The translations under genes were made by a program, and so were the position numbers. Below the pieces are notes generated by a model. The model had not been told where the DNA came from, made no database searches, and saw nothing but the letters and a program-made list of their open reading frames with translations. Shown in pieces: positions 9,012 through 14,872 of a DNA stretch of 64,000 nt. The stretch lies in the sequence record OL780484.1, one strand, 5' to 3'. The DNA comes from Escherichia phage vB_EcoM-E33. Position 1 is the first letter of the stretch; each line of letters begins with the position of its first letter.

Positions 9012-9040
9012 GTTTACATCCTCTAGGAACATGATACTAT
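9012..9040 (+). promoter_or_regulatory. early promoter (GTTTAC ... TGATACTAT)
   Basis: -35 GTTTAC 9012-9017, extended -10 9035-9040; conserved block ATGATACTATAGACCTATCAA. Confidence 0.55.
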
Positions 9041-10048: not shown

Positions 10049-10609
10049 ATGATTATTGAAACAACTGAATTGTTTGGCGAACTGTCCGCTGAAGTAGTTA
10101 ATAACGCAATTGAGCTTTCACAAGAAGACGATAAAATCGTACTGACTATCGCTGATATTAAACCGCTTTATGATTTAATGGTTTTGGATAGACACGATTA
10201 TCTTAATGGTCGTGCTAGTGCTCCTATTGATATCAATGATGATATGTATGCCTATATCTATAAAAACGAAAACGGGTTTAATCTGGAAAATGGTATTGAA
10301 TGTCTGAGCATCAGCGATTCTGATAAATTCTTTGATTGTATTTTCAAACTGTTCCAGGAAGAATGTAAGCCGGAAGTTGAATGGAAAGTCCCAGGCCAAG
10401 ATGCTGTGATTCGTTCTAGTGAAACGTTTGAAGGCACTGAAGAGGAATTAGATTATAATACTGAACTGACTGTGCTTCAACATAACGGCCGTGATTTGCT
10501 ATCCTTGACCCAAAGACACGACGGTGAAAATGAAGTGGTATTTACTAAGGACGAGCTCAAAGCTTTAGTCTCTTATCTGAACTCTGTTATCCCAACTATG
10601 AACTCTTAA
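10049..10609 (+). CDS. hypothetical acidic protein
   Basis: 186-aa ORF. Confidence 0.5.
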   Translation: MIIETTELFGELSAEVVNNAIELSQEDDKIVLTIADIKPLYDLMVLDRHDYLNGRASAPIDINDDMYAYIYKNENGFNLENGIECLSISDSDKFFDCIFKLFQEECKPEVEWKVPGQDAVIRSSETFEGTEEELDYNTELTVLQHNGRDLLSLTQRHDGENEVVFTKDELKALVSYLNSVIPTMNS

Positions 10610-10619
10610 GGAAAATATT

Positions 10620-11078
10620 ATGATTATCAATGCAAACTCTTGGCATGTTAAACTACATGACCGTTTTTATGCCAGTTATTCACGTCCGCGCTCATTATGC
10701 GCATACTTCTGGAAAATGGTTTGGGCGTGCTTTATATGTTCTGTGCTTGCAGGTAGTACTATTTTCGGCTTAACTGTTGCAGGTGCCGGTATATTGGAGC
10801 AGTTCTTTGTATTGAGTACTCCTGTTGGTTTAAGTTTAGGTTTTATTTTAGGACTGGTTACACTAGCTCTTATTCTAGCGGTAGCCGTTGGTATTGTGTA
10901 TTGTATAATGAATTTATGGTCCTGGTATGATTTACGTAAAGAAGAAAAGGAATGGCTACTAATTAAAGCTAAACGTGAAGGAAAGGAAATTAAAGAAAAT
11001 ATCGTTATTCAATATATCAAAGCTCGTAAATCTAAGGTCTGCCCTGTAATCCACTTCGAGAACAAAACAAACCCATAA
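10620..11078 (+). CDS. hypothetical multi-pass membrane protein
   Basis: 152 aa with several hydrophobic helices. Confidence 0.5.
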   Translation: MIINANSWHVKLHDRFYASYSRPRSLCAYFWKMVWACFICSVLAGSTIFGLTVAGAGILEQFFVLSTPVGLSLGFILGLVTLALILAVAVGIVYCIMNLWSWYDLRKEEKEWLLIKAKREGKEIKENIVIQYIKARKSKVCPVIHFENKTNP

Positions 11079-11842
11079 TGAATTATACCAAGCTTTATGA
11101 TAGTCTAATCCAAAGAGGTAAACTTAGAGGATTAGACAAATCCAAATTAAATTTTTATACAGAGTCCCATCATATACTCCCATCATGTATTGGTGGGAGT
11201 GATGAACCTAATAATTTAGTTCTGTTGACAGCCAGAGAACATTTTATAGCACACTGGCTTCTAGCTAGAATTCATTCTGATTCTTCTGGACTAATTTATG
11301 CTTGGTGGTCGTTTTATAGCTTCGGTGAGGATTCTCTAGGAAGAAATCTTAAACTAACTTCTAGAGGATACCAATTAGTTAGAGAAAAATTTTCAGAAAT
11401 TCATTCAAATGCGATGAAAGAAATATGGAAGACTGAAGAGTATAGAAATAAACGTTCTATAACTATGAGTCTACCGGAAATAAAAGATAAAATGTCTGCC
11501 GCTCAAATAGAAGCTCAAAACCGTCCTGAAGTTAAAGAGAAAATTTCTAAAGCTATTAAAGAAGCATTTAAACGCCCTGATGTTAGAGAAAGGCATTCTA
11601 ATGCTGTTAAGAAATCTCTAAATAATCCGGAAACTAAAAAGAGGCAATCTGATGCTTCTAAAGCAAAGCAAAGAATAGGAAAACATTGGCAAGATTATGA
11701 TTTGCTTTATTCTTTATGGGTTAAATTAAATAGGCCTAAGCGTGGGGCTTTTGGTACTTATATTAGTAAATTAGGATATCCCAAATCTAACTACCAACGT
11801 TTAATTATGCAATTTATTGAAGACTATGAAAGAGGTGAATAA
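11078..11842 (+). CDS. Mob-type HNH homing endonuclease
   Basis: HNH motif ESHHILPSCIGGSDEPNNLVLLTAREH; repeated basic NUMOD-like C-terminal motifs; paralog of 46719-47375; T4 mobD-like position. Confidence 0.7.
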   Translation: MNYTKLYDSLIQRGKLRGLDKSKLNFYTESHHILPSCIGGSDEPNNLVLLTAREHFIAHWLLARIHSDSSGLIYAWWSFYSFGEDSLGRNLKLTSRGYQLVREKFSEIHSNAMKEIWKTEEYRNKRSITMSLPEIKDKMSAAQIEAQNRPEVKEKISKAIKEAFKRPDVRERHSNAVKKSLNNPETKKRQSDASKAKQRIGKHWQDYDLLYSLWVKLNRPKRGAFGTYISKLGYPKSNYQRLIMQFIEDYERGE

Positions 11843-12852
11843 TGAGAACAGTTATGAAGGGATATTTTGGCTCCCACCTTTATGGAACAAGTACTCCGGA
11901 ATCTGATGTCGATTTTAAAGAAATCTTTGTTCCACATCCGCGTGATATTCTGTTAGGTACGGCTATGAACCATACCAACCTGAATACGAATAACACTGCT
12001 TCCAAAAACACTAAAGATGATGTTGACCACGAGCTTTACAGTCTGAAATATTTCTTTAAACTAGCGGCTGATGGCGAAACAGTTGCTTTGGATATGCTCC
12101 ACACTCCACCTGAACTGGTGGTTAAATCTGATTTACCTGATGTATGGAAATTTATCCAGGATAACCGTTCTCGGTTCTATACAACCAACATGAAAGCCTA
12201 TTTAGGGTACGTCCGTAAGCAAGCTTCTAAATATGGTGTTAAGGGTTCTCGTCTGGCTGCTCTGCGTGGTGTACTGGCAATCGTTAACCAGATTCCTGAA
12301 CAGTGGGTTGACTATCAAGAAGGAATCCCTGATAGACTTCGTCGTACTAAGGTAGAAGATATCAAACACAGACTCCCTGAAAATGAGTTCTGTGAATGGG
12401 TATTCCATAACCATGAGAAAACAGGCCCTCAAACGTTCTATACTGTTCTAGGACGTAAGTACCAAACTACTTTGTCTTTAATCGAGCTCAAGCAATCTCT
12501 GAATAAGCTCGATGCTGAATATGGTGAACGTGCCCGTAAAGCTGAAGCTAACGAAGGTATTGACTGGAAAGCTCTGAGCCATGCTTATCGGGCTGGGTAT
12601 CAATTGTTGGAAATCTACCAAACAGGCGACCTGGTATTCCCATTGCGCGAAGCCTCTATCATTAAGCTGATTAAGGCCGGTGAACTTCCATTTAAAGAGG
12701 TCCAAGAACTTCTTGAAGACACTGTTGATTTAGTCGAAGTACTGGCTATCCAGGCTCATAAGAACGGTATGCCTGCTAAGGTAGATATGAAGTTCTGGGA
12801 CAAGTTTGTTGAAGAGGTATACCTTGACAACCACAACTCTTATTATCGATAA
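11842..12852 (+). CDS. Pol-beta-superfamily nucleotidyltransferase-like protein
   Basis: N-terminal GSHLYGTSTPESDVD (GS..YG...SD.D nucleotidyltransferase signature); 336 aa. Confidence 0.45.
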   Translation: MRTVMKGYFGSHLYGTSTPESDVDFKEIFVPHPRDILLGTAMNHTNLNTNNTASKNTKDDVDHELYSLKYFFKLAADGETVALDMLHTPPELVVKSDLPDVWKFIQDNRSRFYTTNMKAYLGYVRKQASKYGVKGSRLAALRGVLAIVNQIPEQWVDYQEGIPDRLRRTKVEDIKHRLPENEFCEWVFHNHEKTGPQTFYTVLGRKYQTTLSLIELKQSLNKLDAEYGERARKAEANEGIDWKALSHAYRAGYQLLEIYQTGDLVFPLREASIIKLIKAGELPFKEVQELLEDTVDLVEVLAIQAHKNGMPAKVDMKFWDKFVEEVYLDNHNSYYR

Positions 12853-12859
12853 CGAAGAA

Positions 12860-13048
12860 ATGAAGGTCTTTTTATCATATGGAAGACCCCATAAAACCCG
12901 ACGTTGGTATCTTGAAGCTGTCTGTAAAGAAACCGGACGTCGAGTCAATATCAAGTACGCATGCAAACCTACGCCTAAACAGACAAGACGATTTGTTAAC
13001 TGGGCTGTAAATGATATCCGCTTCTATAATTTTTGGAGCGCAATTTAG
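12860..13048 (+). CDS. small basic hypothetical protein
   Basis: 62 aa from ATG 12860, just after the nucleotidyltransferase stop. Confidence 0.35.
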   Translation: MKVFLSYGRPHKTRRWYLEAVCKETGRRVNIKYACKPTPKQTRRFVNWAVNDIRFYNFWSAI

Positions 13049-13069
13049 GAACCTTCGGGTTCCTTTTTT
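13048..13069 (+). terminator. rho-independent terminator
   Basis: GGAACC-ttcg-GGTTCC followed by T6. Confidence 0.7.
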
Positions 13070-13088
13070 GGGTTTAGTGCAAAAAGGT

Positions 13089-13117
13089 GTTTACAACCTC
13101 GTAGAGCATGATACTAT
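13089..13117 (+). promoter_or_regulatory. early promoter (GTTTAC ... TGATACTAT)
   Basis: -35 13089-13094, -10 13112-13117, conserved ATGATACTATAGACCTATCAA block. Confidence 0.55.
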
Positions 13118-13165
13118 AGACCTATCAAATAAATGAACTGAAACAACTTAAAACGGAGATACAAA

Positions 13166-13420
13166 ATGAATATTAAAGCACCTTTCGCCGGTAATGTTAT
13201 TCGTGAAGATTCAATCGAAATCAACGGTGTGGTAGTTAAAGCGGTTTTAACTGATATCAAAACCTTGGTTAAAGTTGATTACTTAACCTTTAATTTCGAA
13301 AACATTGAAGGTTATATTAATTTCCCACCAAGCATTAAAATGCATGTACGCCATGAAACTTGGTCTAAAGCAGATCAGCAAAAAGCAGTAGATTTTATTA
13401 TTGAGTTCTTCTCAAAATAA
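13166..13420 (+). CDS. hypothetical protein
   Basis: 84-aa ORF. Confidence 0.45.
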   Translation: MNIKAPFAGNVIREDSIEINGVVVKAVLTDIKTLVKVDYLTFNFENIEGYINFPPSIKMHVRHETWSKADQQKAVDFIIEFFSK

Positions 13421-13488
13421 GTGTGTACATATGCTTTAAACGTGTTATTATAGACCTATCAAATCTACTGAGTGAAATGGAGAATATA

Positions 13489-14469
13489 ATGTTAACTATC
13501 AAAATCAACAAAGGTATCTATCGCGGTAATGAAATCTCTGGTACGTTCATGAGTTCAGGTAAAACCTGGTTCCCTAATAAAATTCATGAATCCGAAGCTC
13601 ACCTCGGTGATGGCAAGGTATTCGTACAGATTGATGGTGTTGAACGTGGTGTATGGGTGTTCAAATGTGACGTTGAAATGGAAGGTGCTGAAGCTCCTGC
13701 AGTTGTTACTGAATCCGCTGAAGAAATGAAACATCGCATTAACAAACGTTTTAAAGTAATGAACATGATGACTAATGGAATCATCGATGGTAAAATTCGT
13801 TCCCTTATCATCTCTGGTGCCGCAGGTATTGGTAAAACGTATTCTTTGGATAAAGCATTACAGAATGCCCACGAAAATGAAACTATCGAATATAAATCAA
13901 TCAACGGAAAGATTAGTGGAATCGGTCTTTACGAGCAGCTTTGGAATAACCGCGGCCCTAATAGTGTTCTTCTTATTGATGATGTTGATGTATTCTCTGA
14001 TATGGATATCCTGAACCTGTTAAAAGCAGCATTGGATACTGGTGAAAAACGTAAGGTGTGCTGGAGCACTTCAAGTTCTTATCTTGATGATAAAAATATC
14101 GATAAAGAATTTGAGTATGAAGGCACCATCGTGTTCATCACCAACGTTGATATTGACCGTGAATTAGAGCGTGGAACTAAACTTGCTCCACACCTCCAGG
14201 CTTTAGTATCGCGTTCAGTTTACTTAGACCTCGGAGTTCACTCGAACGAAGAGATTATGGTTCGTGTTGAAGACGTTATCCTGTCCACTGATATGATGCA
14301 AAACCGTGGTCTGACTGATGCCGAGACTTACCAAGCTTTAGCATGGATGAAGGCTAATGTATCTCGTCTTCGTAACGTATCATTACGTACAGCTCTTTAT
14401 CTGGCGGACTTCATTGCCACCGATAAAAATGACTGGAGCGAAATCGCTGAAGTTACACTTCTGAAATAA
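13489..14469 (+). CDS. AAA-type P-loop ATPase
   Basis: Walker A GAAGIGKT, Walker B VLLIDDVD; start at ATG 13489 after GGAG SD. Confidence 0.55.
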   Translation: MLTIKINKGIYRGNEISGTFMSSGKTWFPNKIHESEAHLGDGKVFVQIDGVERGVWVFKCDVEMEGAEAPAVVTESAEEMKHRINKRFKVMNMMTNGIIDGKIRSLIISGAAGIGKTYSLDKALQNAHENETIEYKSINGKISGIGLYEQLWNNRGPNSVLLIDDVDVFSDMDILNLLKAALDTGEKRKVCWSTSSSYLDDKNIDKEFEYEGTIVFITNVDIDRELERGTKLAPHLQALVSRSVYLDLGVHSNEEIMVRVEDVILSTDMMQNRGLTDAETYQALAWMKANVSRLRNVSLRTALYLADFIATDKNDWSEIAEVTLLK

Positions 14470-14822: not shown

Positions 14823-14872
14823 GTTTACATCTCCAGTAGAAATGATACTATAGACCTATCAACTACTGGAGG
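14823..14872 (+). promoter_or_regulatory. early promoter (GTTTAC, TACTAT) with inverted repeat TCTCCAGTAG/CTACTGGAGG covering the SD
   Basis: Arms carry compensatory changes relative to 2301-2343 (CTGTAG/CTACAG -> CAGTAG/CTACTG). Confidence 0.6.

Follow-up and report, generated by a model that had tools for sequence, protein, structure and literature searches.

The 336-aa open reading frame (ORF) analyzed here is, judged by sequence and gene order, an ortholog of T4 NrdC.11, and its product is a predicted nucleotidyltransferase (NTase) of the RlaP family (PF10127) with a Pol-beta fold. It is an ordinary, widely conserved gene of T4-like phages that was already known. By analogy with characterized enzymes, the protein is rather likely to extend RNA 3'-OH ends by one or two nucleotides, without a template, in tRNA repair, where it would act together with Pnkp and an RNA ligase. 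The gene is located in a 64,000-nt stretch of DNA from Escherichia phage vB_EcoM-E33 (OL780484.1), referred to below as the window. The features of the locus are listed in Table 1.

Table 1. Features of the NTase gene and its surroundings, in window coordinates.
Feature	Position	Strand	Basis
mobD homing endonuclease (HNH); context, outside the NTase unit	11078..11842	+	PHROG 655, E=6e-56; identity to T4 MobD
NrdC.11-type nucleotidyltransferase (RlaP family, PF10127)	11842..12852	+	336 aa, ATG start; T4 identity, Pfam, PHROG, AF2 model
Catalytic signature G10-S11-x3-G15 ... S21-D22-x-D24	11869..11913	+	Conservation; aligns with GS...DxD of canonical RlaP
D60-V-D62, beta-strand 61-67	12019..12027	+	D60 97% and D62 95% conserved; strand from AF2 model
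Small basic protein DUF7279 (PF23945), 62 aa	12860..13048	+	ATG 12860; alternative TTG 12824 gives 74 aa
Intrinsic terminator closing the transcription unit	13047..13070	+	7-bp stem, 4 GC pairs, TTCG loop, T-run
T4-early-type promoter-like site, start of next unit (84-aa ORF, nrdC.10)	13090..13117	+	Consensus match

Identity and family of the nucleotidyltransferase

The orthology to T4 NrdC.11 (NP_049709, annotated in RefSeq as 'nucleotidyltransferase') is indicated by 81.8% identity across the full 336 aa and by a synteny like that of T4 (tk, rI, mobD.x, mobD, nrdC.11, nrdC.10), with mobD/mobD.1 upstream and nrdC.10 downstream of the gene. The gene carries the annotation NrdC.11 in VR26, IME341 and JS98. 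T4 differs in lacking a DUF7279 gene, its terminator following nrdC.11 directly within a 114-nt gap, whereas in the window mobD.1 and mobD are separated by an additional gene for a membrane protein.

The initial annotation had proposed a Pol-beta-type NTase, and the profile search it called for bore this out. The protein matches PHROG 388 'nucleotidyltransferase' (E=5e-132) and Pfam PF10127 (RlaP; E=1.8e-11, 44.7 bits, gathering cutoff 23), the latter match spanning only positions 25-143 of the 249 in the profile. PF10127 is precomputed for every listed homolog, and an hhalign comparison with canonical RlaP gave a probability of 94% (E=1.3e-7). The rest of the protein had been regarded as unrecognised. 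This description has to be abandoned, as the whole 336 aa fall into the full-length family of T4 NrdC.11 and PF10127, which comprises 3273 cluster representatives. The window contains no second NTase, no tRNA gene and no Rfam family.

The match of T4 NrdC.11 to a nucleotidyltransferase domain dates from 2006 (PMC1524935), and the gene carries little weight as a discovery. Burroughs and Aravind, 2016, as cited in PMC12776372 and PMC7824862, assigned T4 nrdC.11 to the RNA-repair-associated RlaP family. A 2025 preprint (PMC12776372) places T4 NrdC.11 inside the RlaP sequence-similarity network, in cluster 5, separate from the Pseudomonas enzymes. A literature search under 'nrdC11' found nothing. 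The outcome that the initial annotation had named as speaking against its proposal, a uniformly present gene with a known T4 function, is essentially what was found, with the qualification that the function of T4 nrdC.11 is itself a prediction.

Catalytic motif and predicted fold

The GS-x-YG...SD-x-D signature noted at the N-terminus is present as G10-S11-H-L-Y-G15 followed by S21-D22-V-D24. In an alignment of 107 homologs with 33-82% identity, G10, G15, S21, D22 and D24 are invariant. A fortuitous motif, in which the catalytic Asp residues would vary among homologs, is thus not what is seen. The Pol-beta pattern hG[GS], followed by [DE]h[DE] on the next beta-strand, is recognizable in G10-S11 and D22-V-D24, which are invariant in the same alignment. 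An AF2 model (pLDDT 94.4) positions G10-S11 where strand 2-9 ends and D22-V-D24 where strand 23-30 begins. Two further acidic residues, D60 and D62, are highly conserved (Table 1), as is D84 (at least 95%). D62, which hhalign aligned to the invariant Asp in the canonical RlaP motif 'LDxNGWD', is probably the third catalytic carboxylate. Its location on a neighbouring beta-strand, together with the alpha/beta NTase fold, is as expected for the Pol-beta superfamily.

Canonical RlaP of P. fluorescens and P. aeruginosa (PMC12776372) shares the GS...DxD...D core and the first helices with the NTase. The model contains helices at 99-150 and 213-335, and past about residue 133 hhalign found no resemblance in sequence to canonical RlaP. 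Canonical RlaP comprises about 250 aa, whereas NrdC.11-type proteins continue after about residue 133 with some 200 further residues. Judged by sequence, only the NrdC.11 subfamily has this C-terminal region, in which residues 151-210 form a variable beta insert. In the crystal structure of PfRlaP, a C-terminal helical domain and a terminal helix are packed on the NTase domain (PMC12776372). Searches of a PDB copy with the NTase sequence, the 107-sequence profile and a canonical-RlaP profile returned no solved relative.

The adjacent mobD gene is the inserted element

The upstream ORF had been annotated as a Mob HNH endonuclease, in agreement with its match to PHROG 655 and its 79.4% identity to T4 MobD over 252 aa. 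It is accordingly classified by sequence as MobD, a predicted HNH homing endonuclease. PMC2988022 lists nrdC.11/mobD.1 as the site of mobD insertion in T4. Only a few sequences, namely the window, VR26, TH40 and T4, contain mobD at this site, and it is missing there from the closest relatives IME341, IME281 and QL01 as well as from most other relatives. Since mobD forms a clean insertion of about 765 nt, with the membrane-protein gene on one side and the start of the NTase on the other, and has no counterpart in the closest relatives, the NTase is best described from these comparisons as a resident gene and not as mobD cargo.

The position of the NTase and the small ORF next to mobD, and the tight spacing between them, could speak for both being cargo of a mobD cassette, or for a toxin-antitoxin-like selfish pair. 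This explanation is almost certainly wrong. The NTase occurs in 1548 phage records but mobD at this site in very few, the junction in IME341 shows that mobD alone was inserted, and T4, CC31, Acj9 and most other phages possess the NTase without the small ORF. The cargo part is already refuted by these comparative data. Likewise, comparison with relatives does not reveal a variably present unit of mob, NTase and small ORF as had been envisaged: mobD varies, the NTase stays, and the small ORF is confined to 211 records.

A small basic protein encoded downstream

The basic 62-aa ORF reported to follow the NTase after 7 nt was recovered as such. Counted from the NTase stop codon (12850-12852) to ATG 12860 the gap is indeed 7 nt, and the product has a pI of 10.55, with 14 K+R against 3 D+E. 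It matches DUF7279 (PF23945; E=6.6e-9, 36 bits, cutoff 24.5) and PHROG 8921 (E=4.9e-32), and a third-codon-position substitution bias supports its coding nature. Every checked genome that carries the small ORF has it directly 3' of the NTase, although its 211 records compare with 1548 for the NTase. By these signs it is a real conserved gene that is lineage-specific and tightly juxtaposed to the NTase. No literature was found under 'DUF7279'.

The start codon of the small ORF is ambiguous. ATG 12860 is conserved as ATG in nine of 17 distinct versions, and five have ATT or ATC instead. Translation from the in-frame TTG at 12824, which has GAGG ahead of it, would yield 74 aa and a 29-nt overlap with the 3' end of the NTase gene, and gene callers mostly predicted 71-76 aa in other genomes. 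The non-conserved ATG also prompted consideration of a +1 frameshift fusion of the small ORF to the NTase. This was rejected, as there is no conserved slippery site and in-frame starts of the small ORF are present in every genome. Moreover, T4 conserves the GAGG...TTG element just as well without having the small ORF, so its conservation reflects the NTase C-terminus EEVYLDNH. At most, the DUF7279 protein may assist the NTase as an accessory or RNA-binding factor.

Transcription unit

The strong terminator annotated after the small ORF was also confirmed: the stem AGGAACC-TTCG-GGTTCCT at 13047-13064 is followed by T6. An equivalent hairpin is situated directly 3' of nrdC.11 in T4 and 3' of the small ORFs in PKO111. 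The promoter-like site downstream, TTTACA-16-TACTAT preceded by a TG, was assigned from its match to the consensus only; T4 and PKO111 show the same layout of terminator and promoter. In the favoured reading the NTase gene is transcribed early, in one unit ending at the terminator at 13047.

RNA-repair genes surround cellular homologs

Full-length homologs with 34-53% identity were sampled from 80 bacterial and archaeal loci, and RNA-repair genes were scored within 6 kb. Such neighbours occur in 36 loci and are absent from the other 44. They comprise canonical RlaP (25 loci), Pnkp-type proteins (11), RtcB (10), Hen1 (8) and Ro60 (2). One locus (L044) has the order Ro60-RtcB-NTase-RlaP-Hen1-Pnkp, and two (L065 and L090) show Hen1-Pnkp-NTase-RlaP. 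A genomic link to RNA ligase or RNA-repair genes, a hallmark of RlaP, is therefore found for the cellular homologs of the NrdC.11 subfamily as well, and both types are tied to RtcB, Pnkp or ligase operons. No homologs of NrdC.10, DUF7279, the 84-aa ORF, the membrane protein or MobD.1 were found beside the cellular NTases.

The tandem arrangement with canonical RlaP in 25 of the 80 loci suggests that the two enzymes are non-redundant and possibly differ in activity, so the NrdC.11 type could be functionally distinct from RlaP. It is distinctly unlikely, though, that it constitutes a separate second RNA-repair enzyme to which DUF7279 has been coupled in some T4-like phages as an RNA-binding or specificity subunit. 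If this were the case, translation of DUF7279 would be coupled to that of the NTase, and its product could, for example, determine the tRNA break to be filled or the nucleotide used.

Proposed function and alternatives

For the NTase, a role in the repair of broken tRNAs is favoured. Pseudomonas RlaP adds one or two NMPs to RNA 3'-OH ends with a preference for Mn2+, favours mimics of broken tRNA, leaves DNA and protein unlabelled and partly restores aminoacylation of a tRNA that lacks one nucleotide (PMC12776372). This RNA 3'-OH activity is reported for two Pseudomonas enzymes only, which belong to another subfamily than NrdC.11 (PMC12776372). The same role in tRNA repair has been predicted for phage RlaP (PMC7824862). 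From these precedents we infer the RNA substrate of the NTase, the number and identity of the nucleotides added and a role against host defence.

According to this proposal, two divalent cations, probably Mn2+, would be bound by D22, D24 and D62, and the 3'-OH of a damaged RNA would receive one or two NMPs from NTPs in a template-free reaction. The enzyme would act mainly on tRNA halves left after a host anticodon nuclease of the RloC type has cut the anticodon loop and trimmed off a nucleotide. The phage Pnkp (PseT) would heal the ends first, and Rnl1 or Rnl2 would then reseal the full-length tRNA. The proposed partner is thus the T4 tRNA-repair system directed against PrrC, consisting of Pnkp/PseT and Rnl1, whose genes are found in this phage lineage. 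These two enzymes can heal and seal RNA ends but have no means of restoring a nucleotide that was lost, and it is this step that is proposed for the NTase.

JS98, a member of Dhakavirus, the genus of the nearest relatives of the window, encodes pseT, rnlA and rnlB. The record counts of NTase, PseT and RnlA per host genus are nearly identical, which may mean nothing more than that all three are near-core genes of Straboviridae. The NTase gene itself shows no linkage to the kinase or ligase genes: pseT, rnlA and rnlB lie elsewhere in the JS98 genome. A T4 deletion from nrdC.11 to mobD.3 is viable (PMC9825161).

The same enzymology could instead serve to tail RNA 3' ends elsewhere, either at a trimmed tRNA 3'-CCA or on host or phage transcripts whose stability would be changed. 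This is consistent with the lack of linkage to ligase or kinase genes, with the distinct C-terminal region, which could confer another RNA specificity, and with the labelling of rRNA- and tRNA-sized species and single-stranded RNA by Pseudomonas RlaP with little NTP specificity (PMC12776372). However, cellular homologs of the same subfamily adjoin Pnkp/Hen1 and RtcB ligase systems, which points to the repair of breaks. The host also has its own CCA-adding enzyme, and tailing of this kind is regarded as unlikely.

Among the uses of NTases listed in the initial annotation, nucleic-acid tailing fits, but toxin-antitoxin and signalling functions found no support. Kanamycin nucleotidyltransferase, Hailong HalB and MNT are structural neighbours of the NTase, but with a sequence identity of only 9-15%, in other gene contexts and with an aminoglycoside, a DNA oligomer and a protein as acceptors. 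An MNT-like protein nucleotidylyltransferase that acts as an antitoxin mimic by AMPylating a host HEPN-type RNase toxin is very unlikely. Both family scores lie far under their cutoffs, the NCBIfam MntA model reaching 15.2 bits where 60 are required, with only about 18 motif residues matched, and no HEPN toxin gene is adjacent, the neighbours being MobD, DUF7279, the 84-aa ORF and NrdC.10. In addition, E. coli proteins were not labelled by Pseudomonas RlaP (PMC12776372), and the cellular homologs reside in RNA-repair operons and not in toxin-antitoxin pairs. Synthesis of a nucleotide or oligonucleotide signal, such as a HalB-like oligodeoxyadenylate that mimics or jams host immune signalling, is highly improbable. 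Here the sequence identity is only 12%, the match covers the generic NTase core, the C-terminal domain differs, and the context of cellular homologs is RNA repair. PADLOC hits were at noise level (PDC-S09, E=0.004, 17 residues), and PADLOC and NCBIfam searches with the NTase, the small ORF, the 84-aa ORF and NrdC.10 yielded nothing meaningful.

With tRNA repair as the preferred function, the NTase would extend the classic T4 tRNA-repair counter-defence. In T4-like phages, NrdC.11 might be a third component of this counter-defence, directed against anticodon nucleases of the RloC type that excise nucleotides. The tandem of NrdC.11-type protein and canonical RlaP in bacterial operons and the strict adjacency of DUF7279 to the NTase in phages provide modest leads on this point.

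Identity and genomic context of the nucleotidyltransferase

The window is part of the genome of a T4-like Tevenvirinae phage, with the Dhakavirus members IME281, QL01, IME341 and JS98 and the Gaprivervirus VR26 as nearest relatives; its plus strand corresponds to the minus strand of T4. The elements described in the initial annotation, i.e. the nucleotidyltransferase (NTase) ORF with its GS/SD-x-D motif, the small basic ORF 7 nt behind it, the terminator and the HNH gene upstream, are all present in the sequence (see table). The HNH ORF stop and the NTase ATG share one base, and the NTase N-terminus, MRTVMKGYFGSHLYGTSTPESDVDF, contains G10-S11, G15 and S21-D22-V-D24. T4 NrdC.11 shares 81.8% identity with the NTase across all 336 residues, and the orthologs of VR26, IME341, JS98, CC31 and Acj9 are annotated as NrdC.11 or 'nucleotidyltransferase'. 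The T4-like gene order is tk, rI, mobD.x genes, MobD.1 (which contains y05I domains), optionally mobD, nrdC.11 and nrdC.10. Using tblastn, the NTase was located in 1548 phage records (1442 full-length), from T4-like phages of Escherichia, Klebsiella, Shigella, Aeromonas, Acinetobacter, Vibrio and even Caulobacter. Judged by sequence, the NTase gene is T4 nrdC.11, a well-known and near-universal gene of the T4 family. Its nucleotidyltransferase nature was recognized in 2006 via a match to COG3541 (PMC1524935), and a December 2025 preprint assigned T4 NrdC.11 to the RlaP family, cluster 5 of a sequence-similarity network (PMC12776372). Many database orthologs are misnamed 'thioredoxin', carried over from the locus label nrdC.11, and isolated ones bear the name 'HNH homing endonuclease' or 'ArsR family regulator'; such errors could mislead automated pipelines. 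In record OL964745.1 ('Escherichia phage T4', 159,752 bp) nrdC.11 is reduced to its last ~35 codons. This looks like a laboratory deletion and agrees with the reported dispensability of the nrdC.11-mobD.3 fragment, as T4 with deletions across this stretch remains viable under laboratory conditions (PMC9825161).

Features of the nrdC.11 region in the window and operons at cellular loci encoding NTase homologs
Feature	Location	Strand	Details
T4-early-type promoter-like site	9013-9040		TTTACA, 16 nt, TACTAT, upstream TG
Predicted membrane protein	10620-11078		152 aa; PHROG 944; weak oleosin-like match; between mobD.1 and mobD
HNH homing endonuclease ORF (mobD)	11078-11842	+	PHROG 655, E=6e-56
NTase ORF (nrdC.11)	11842-12852	+	ATG start; 336 aa; stop codon 12850-12852
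Small ORF (DUF7279)	12860-13048	+	ATG 12860, 7 nt past NTase stop; 62 aa
Terminator	13047-13070	+	Hairpin and T-run
T4-early-type promoter-like site	13090-13117	+	TTTACA, 16 nt, TACTAT, upstream TG
84-aa ORF	13166-13420		Behind early promoter-like site; hypothetical in IME341
NrdC.10-like P-loop ATPase	13423-14469		PHROG 1250, E=3e-163; weak AAA_14, AAA_22 and nSTAND matches
T4-early-type promoter-like site	14824-14851		TTTACA, 16 nt, TACTAT, upstream TG
Operon Ro60-RtcB-NTase-RlaP-Hen1-Pnkp	L044 1672-12910		
Operon Hen1-Pnkp-NTase-RlaP	L065 2088-7799		
Operon Hen1-Pnkp-NTase-RlaP	L090 2074-5990		

The HNH protein upstream of the NTase is 79.4% identical to T4 MobD, whose reported insertion site is nrdC.11/mobD.1 (PMC2988022). 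Coverage of at least 80% of the region 10600-13500 was reached in only three of 482 matching records, representing VR26 (two entries) and TH40, and both phages carry mobD at the site. The closest relatives, IME281, QL01 and IME341 (NTase identity 93-99%), lack mobD; in IME341 ...CACTTCGAGAACAAAGA is joined directly to ATGAGAACAGTTATGAA, whereas the window harbors ~765 nt of mobD between identical flanks. Because of these relatives and the clean IME341 junction, mobD is the mobile insertion and the NTase a resident gene. The suggestion that the NTase might be cargo of a mobile insertion was thus wrong, as mobD alone is inserted and the NTase occurs in 1548 phage records. It is highly improbable that the NTase, with or without the small ORF, is cargo of a mobD cassette, or that the two form a toxin-antitoxin pair; gene distribution and junction comparison contradict both. 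At the position of the 152-aa membrane protein, T4 has no gene.

Conserved residues and predicted structure

NTase residues 8-135 match Pfam PF10127 (RlaP, 'RNA repair pathway DNA polymerase beta family'; E=1.8e-11, 44.7 bits versus a cutoff of 23), and residues 1-335 match PHROG 388 'nucleotidyltransferase' (E=5e-132). When 1.84 billion cluster representatives were searched exhaustively with HMMER, 3273 relatives were recovered at E<=1e-3, 832 of which reach E<=1e-30; for most of them the alignment is full-length. In an alignment of 107 of these (33-82% identity), G10, G15, S21, D22, D24, Y131, R230, H247, R250 and P267 are invariant, and conservation is 92% or higher at S11, D60, D62, D84, K130, K134, G135, D241, W242, K243, K278 and G280. 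The retention of D22 and D24 in all 107 homologs, together with the PF10127 and PHROG 388 matches, indicates at the level of sequence that the motif is no chance match.

AlphaFold2 produced a confident model from this 107-sequence alignment (pLDDT 94.4, pTM 0.85). Its alpha/beta NTase core spans residues ~1-100 and is followed by helices at 99-150; a beta insert of five strands (154-208) then leads to a helical bundle at 213-335. Conservation is lowest in the beta insert, with a mean top-residue frequency of 0.26 and an occupancy of 0.81. Sequence searches of the PDB found no sequence-related solved structure. Profile-profile comparison with canonical RlaPs, the ~250-aa type found in Pseudomonas, gave a probability of 94% (E=1.3e-7) for residues 7-133 only. 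Here, D22/D24 lie opposite the DxD of canonical RlaP and D62 (strand 61-67) opposite the invariant Asp of its 'LDxNGWD' motif, so D22, D24 and D62 form a putative catalytic triad. The C-terminal 200 residues are at the sequence level specific to the NrdC.11 subfamily. An MNT-like protein AMPylase directed against HEPN toxins, for which sub-threshold motif matches and a HEPN-like bundle are the sole indications, is improbable; a HalB-like signal synthase, suggested solely by a generic fold match with 12% identity, appears marginally less probable still.

The DUF7279 gene and predicted transcription signals

The small ORF belongs to DUF7279 (PF23945; Pfam E=6.6e-9, PHROG 8921 E=4.9e-32) and encodes a product with a pI of 10.55 (14 Lys and Arg versus 3 Asp and Glu). 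Compared to VR26 it shows 11, 3 and 26 substitutions at codon positions 1, 2 and 3, corresponding to 21 synonymous and 9 non-synonymous codon changes, and its own frame is the only one open in all genomes. Family match, substitution pattern and open frame establish the small basic ORF as a real gene. DUF7279 is a very small family restricted to T4-like phages (211 phage records, and 16 clusters in a set of 5.8 billion proteins), and the gene starts 4-10 nt past the NTase stop in every genome examined. This sample consisted of 10 GenBank phages from Dhakavirus, Gaprivervirus, Jiaodavirus, Kanagawavirus, Moonvirus, Mosugukvirus and Winklervirus plus two unclassified Serratia phages, together with IMG/VR loci (14 of 14), which partly represent these very genomes. 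T4 differs in lacking DUF7279, its terminator following directly behind nrdC.11. Nothing on this strict adjacency was found in the searchable literature. As all carriers come from one phage subfamily, one insertion in a common ancestor, and not selected coupling, may account for the adjacency; the protein may serve the NTase as an accessory or RNA-binding factor. The start codon is uncertain between ATG 12860 and an in-frame TTG at 12824, which has GAGG 6 nt upstream and would give a 74-aa protein; most gene callers give 71-76 aa. In five of 17 distinct DUF7279 versions (including those of phage loci L095, L106, L107, L108 and L008), ATT or ATC stands in place of ATG 12860, the ORF being otherwise intact. 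This implies that translation begins upstream, at a TTG or ATG within the NTase gene, or else uses a non-canonical codon via termination-reinitiation coupling. The GAGG...TTG is found in T4 too, so it owes its conservation to the NTase C-terminus (E-E-V-Y-L-D) encoded there.

The small ORF stop overlaps the terminator, a hairpin with a 7-bp stem (AGGAACC-TTCG-GGTTCCT) and T6 directly behind it. Matching terminator-promoter pairs occur in T4 and PKO111 after nrdC.11 or its trailing small ORFs. Based on this pair of predicted signals (consensus matches), NTase and DUF7279 appear to be last in an early transcription unit, and NrdC.10, with its own early promoter-like site ahead, appears to open a new one. 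Three near-identical promoter-like sites are spaced along this stretch of small early genes. NrdC.10 lies downstream of nrdC.11 in all examined T4-like genomes with an identifiable downstream gene (T4, IME341, CC31, Acj9, PM2 and CHI14); no homolog was found beside cellular NTases in the fetched loci. The GTG listed as its start probably lies too far upstream, as the PHROG profile starts at residue 23. The gap between the two genes (12853-13165 in the window; compared across phage loci L002-L013) is a variable small-gene slot, containing DUF7279 and the 84-aa ORF in the window, nothing in T4, DUF7279, a transmembrane protein and another ORF in PKO111, a transmembrane protein and four ORFs in CC31, and an unrelated 99-aa ORF in Acj9. 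The 84-aa ORF has no matches in Pfam, PHROGs or PADLOC.

Association with RNA repair and likely function

A scan of 185,579 species genomes revealed 156 full-length NTase relatives, and 80 loci (34-53% identity) were fetched and examined by neighbor clustering, Pfam scans and tblastn. RNA-repair genes are located within 6 kb in 36 of these 80 NrdC.11-type loci. Canonical full-length PF10127 RlaP (E=5e-79) is encoded in 25, from both bacteria and archaea (among L014-L093), usually directly downstream and frequently with a 4-nt start/stop overlap. Other neighbors are Pnkp-type kinase-phosphatase(-ligase) (11 loci), RtcB (10), Hen1 (8) and Ro60/TROVE (2). By rough reasoning, RtcB or Pnkp/Hen1 would be expected in well under 1% of random 12-kb windows, so the enrichment appears strong. 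The tandem pairing argues against redundancy of the NrdC.11 type and canonical RlaP and suggests distinct roles for two paralogous NTases per RNA-repair operon. The searchable literature yielded nothing on this tandem in bacterial RNA-repair operons; it may already be covered in a 2016 paper by Burroughs and Aravind.

Two characterized Pseudomonas RlaPs extend RNA 3'-OH ends by one or two NMPs, with a preference for Mn2+ and for mimics of broken tRNA; they do not label DNA or protein, and they enable a tRNA missing a nucleotide to be partly aminoacylated again (PMC12776372). It was proposed that RlaP refills nucleotides cut out by 'smart' anticodon nucleases, RloC for example, before ligation (PMC12776372; earlier by Aravind's group, PMC7824862). 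JS98 possesses pseT, rnlA and rnlB, unlinked to the NTase gene. Record counts of NTase, PseT and RnlA per host genus are almost identical (Klebsiella 286/286/287, Shigella 83/83/83, Enterobacter 56/56/56). The main alternative, RNA tailing directed at something else, for instance CCA ends or mRNAs, is rather unlikely. Fold, conserved residues, family, orthology and the operon context in cells are shown by the present data, and substrate, product and biological role are inferred. We favor, with some reservation in view of the tandem pairing with canonical RlaP and the viable T4 deletions, an enzyme that would add nucleotides to RNA 3' ends without a template. The NTase would thereby join T4 Pnkp/Rnl tRNA repair and probably extend this pathway as a counter-defence of the phage.
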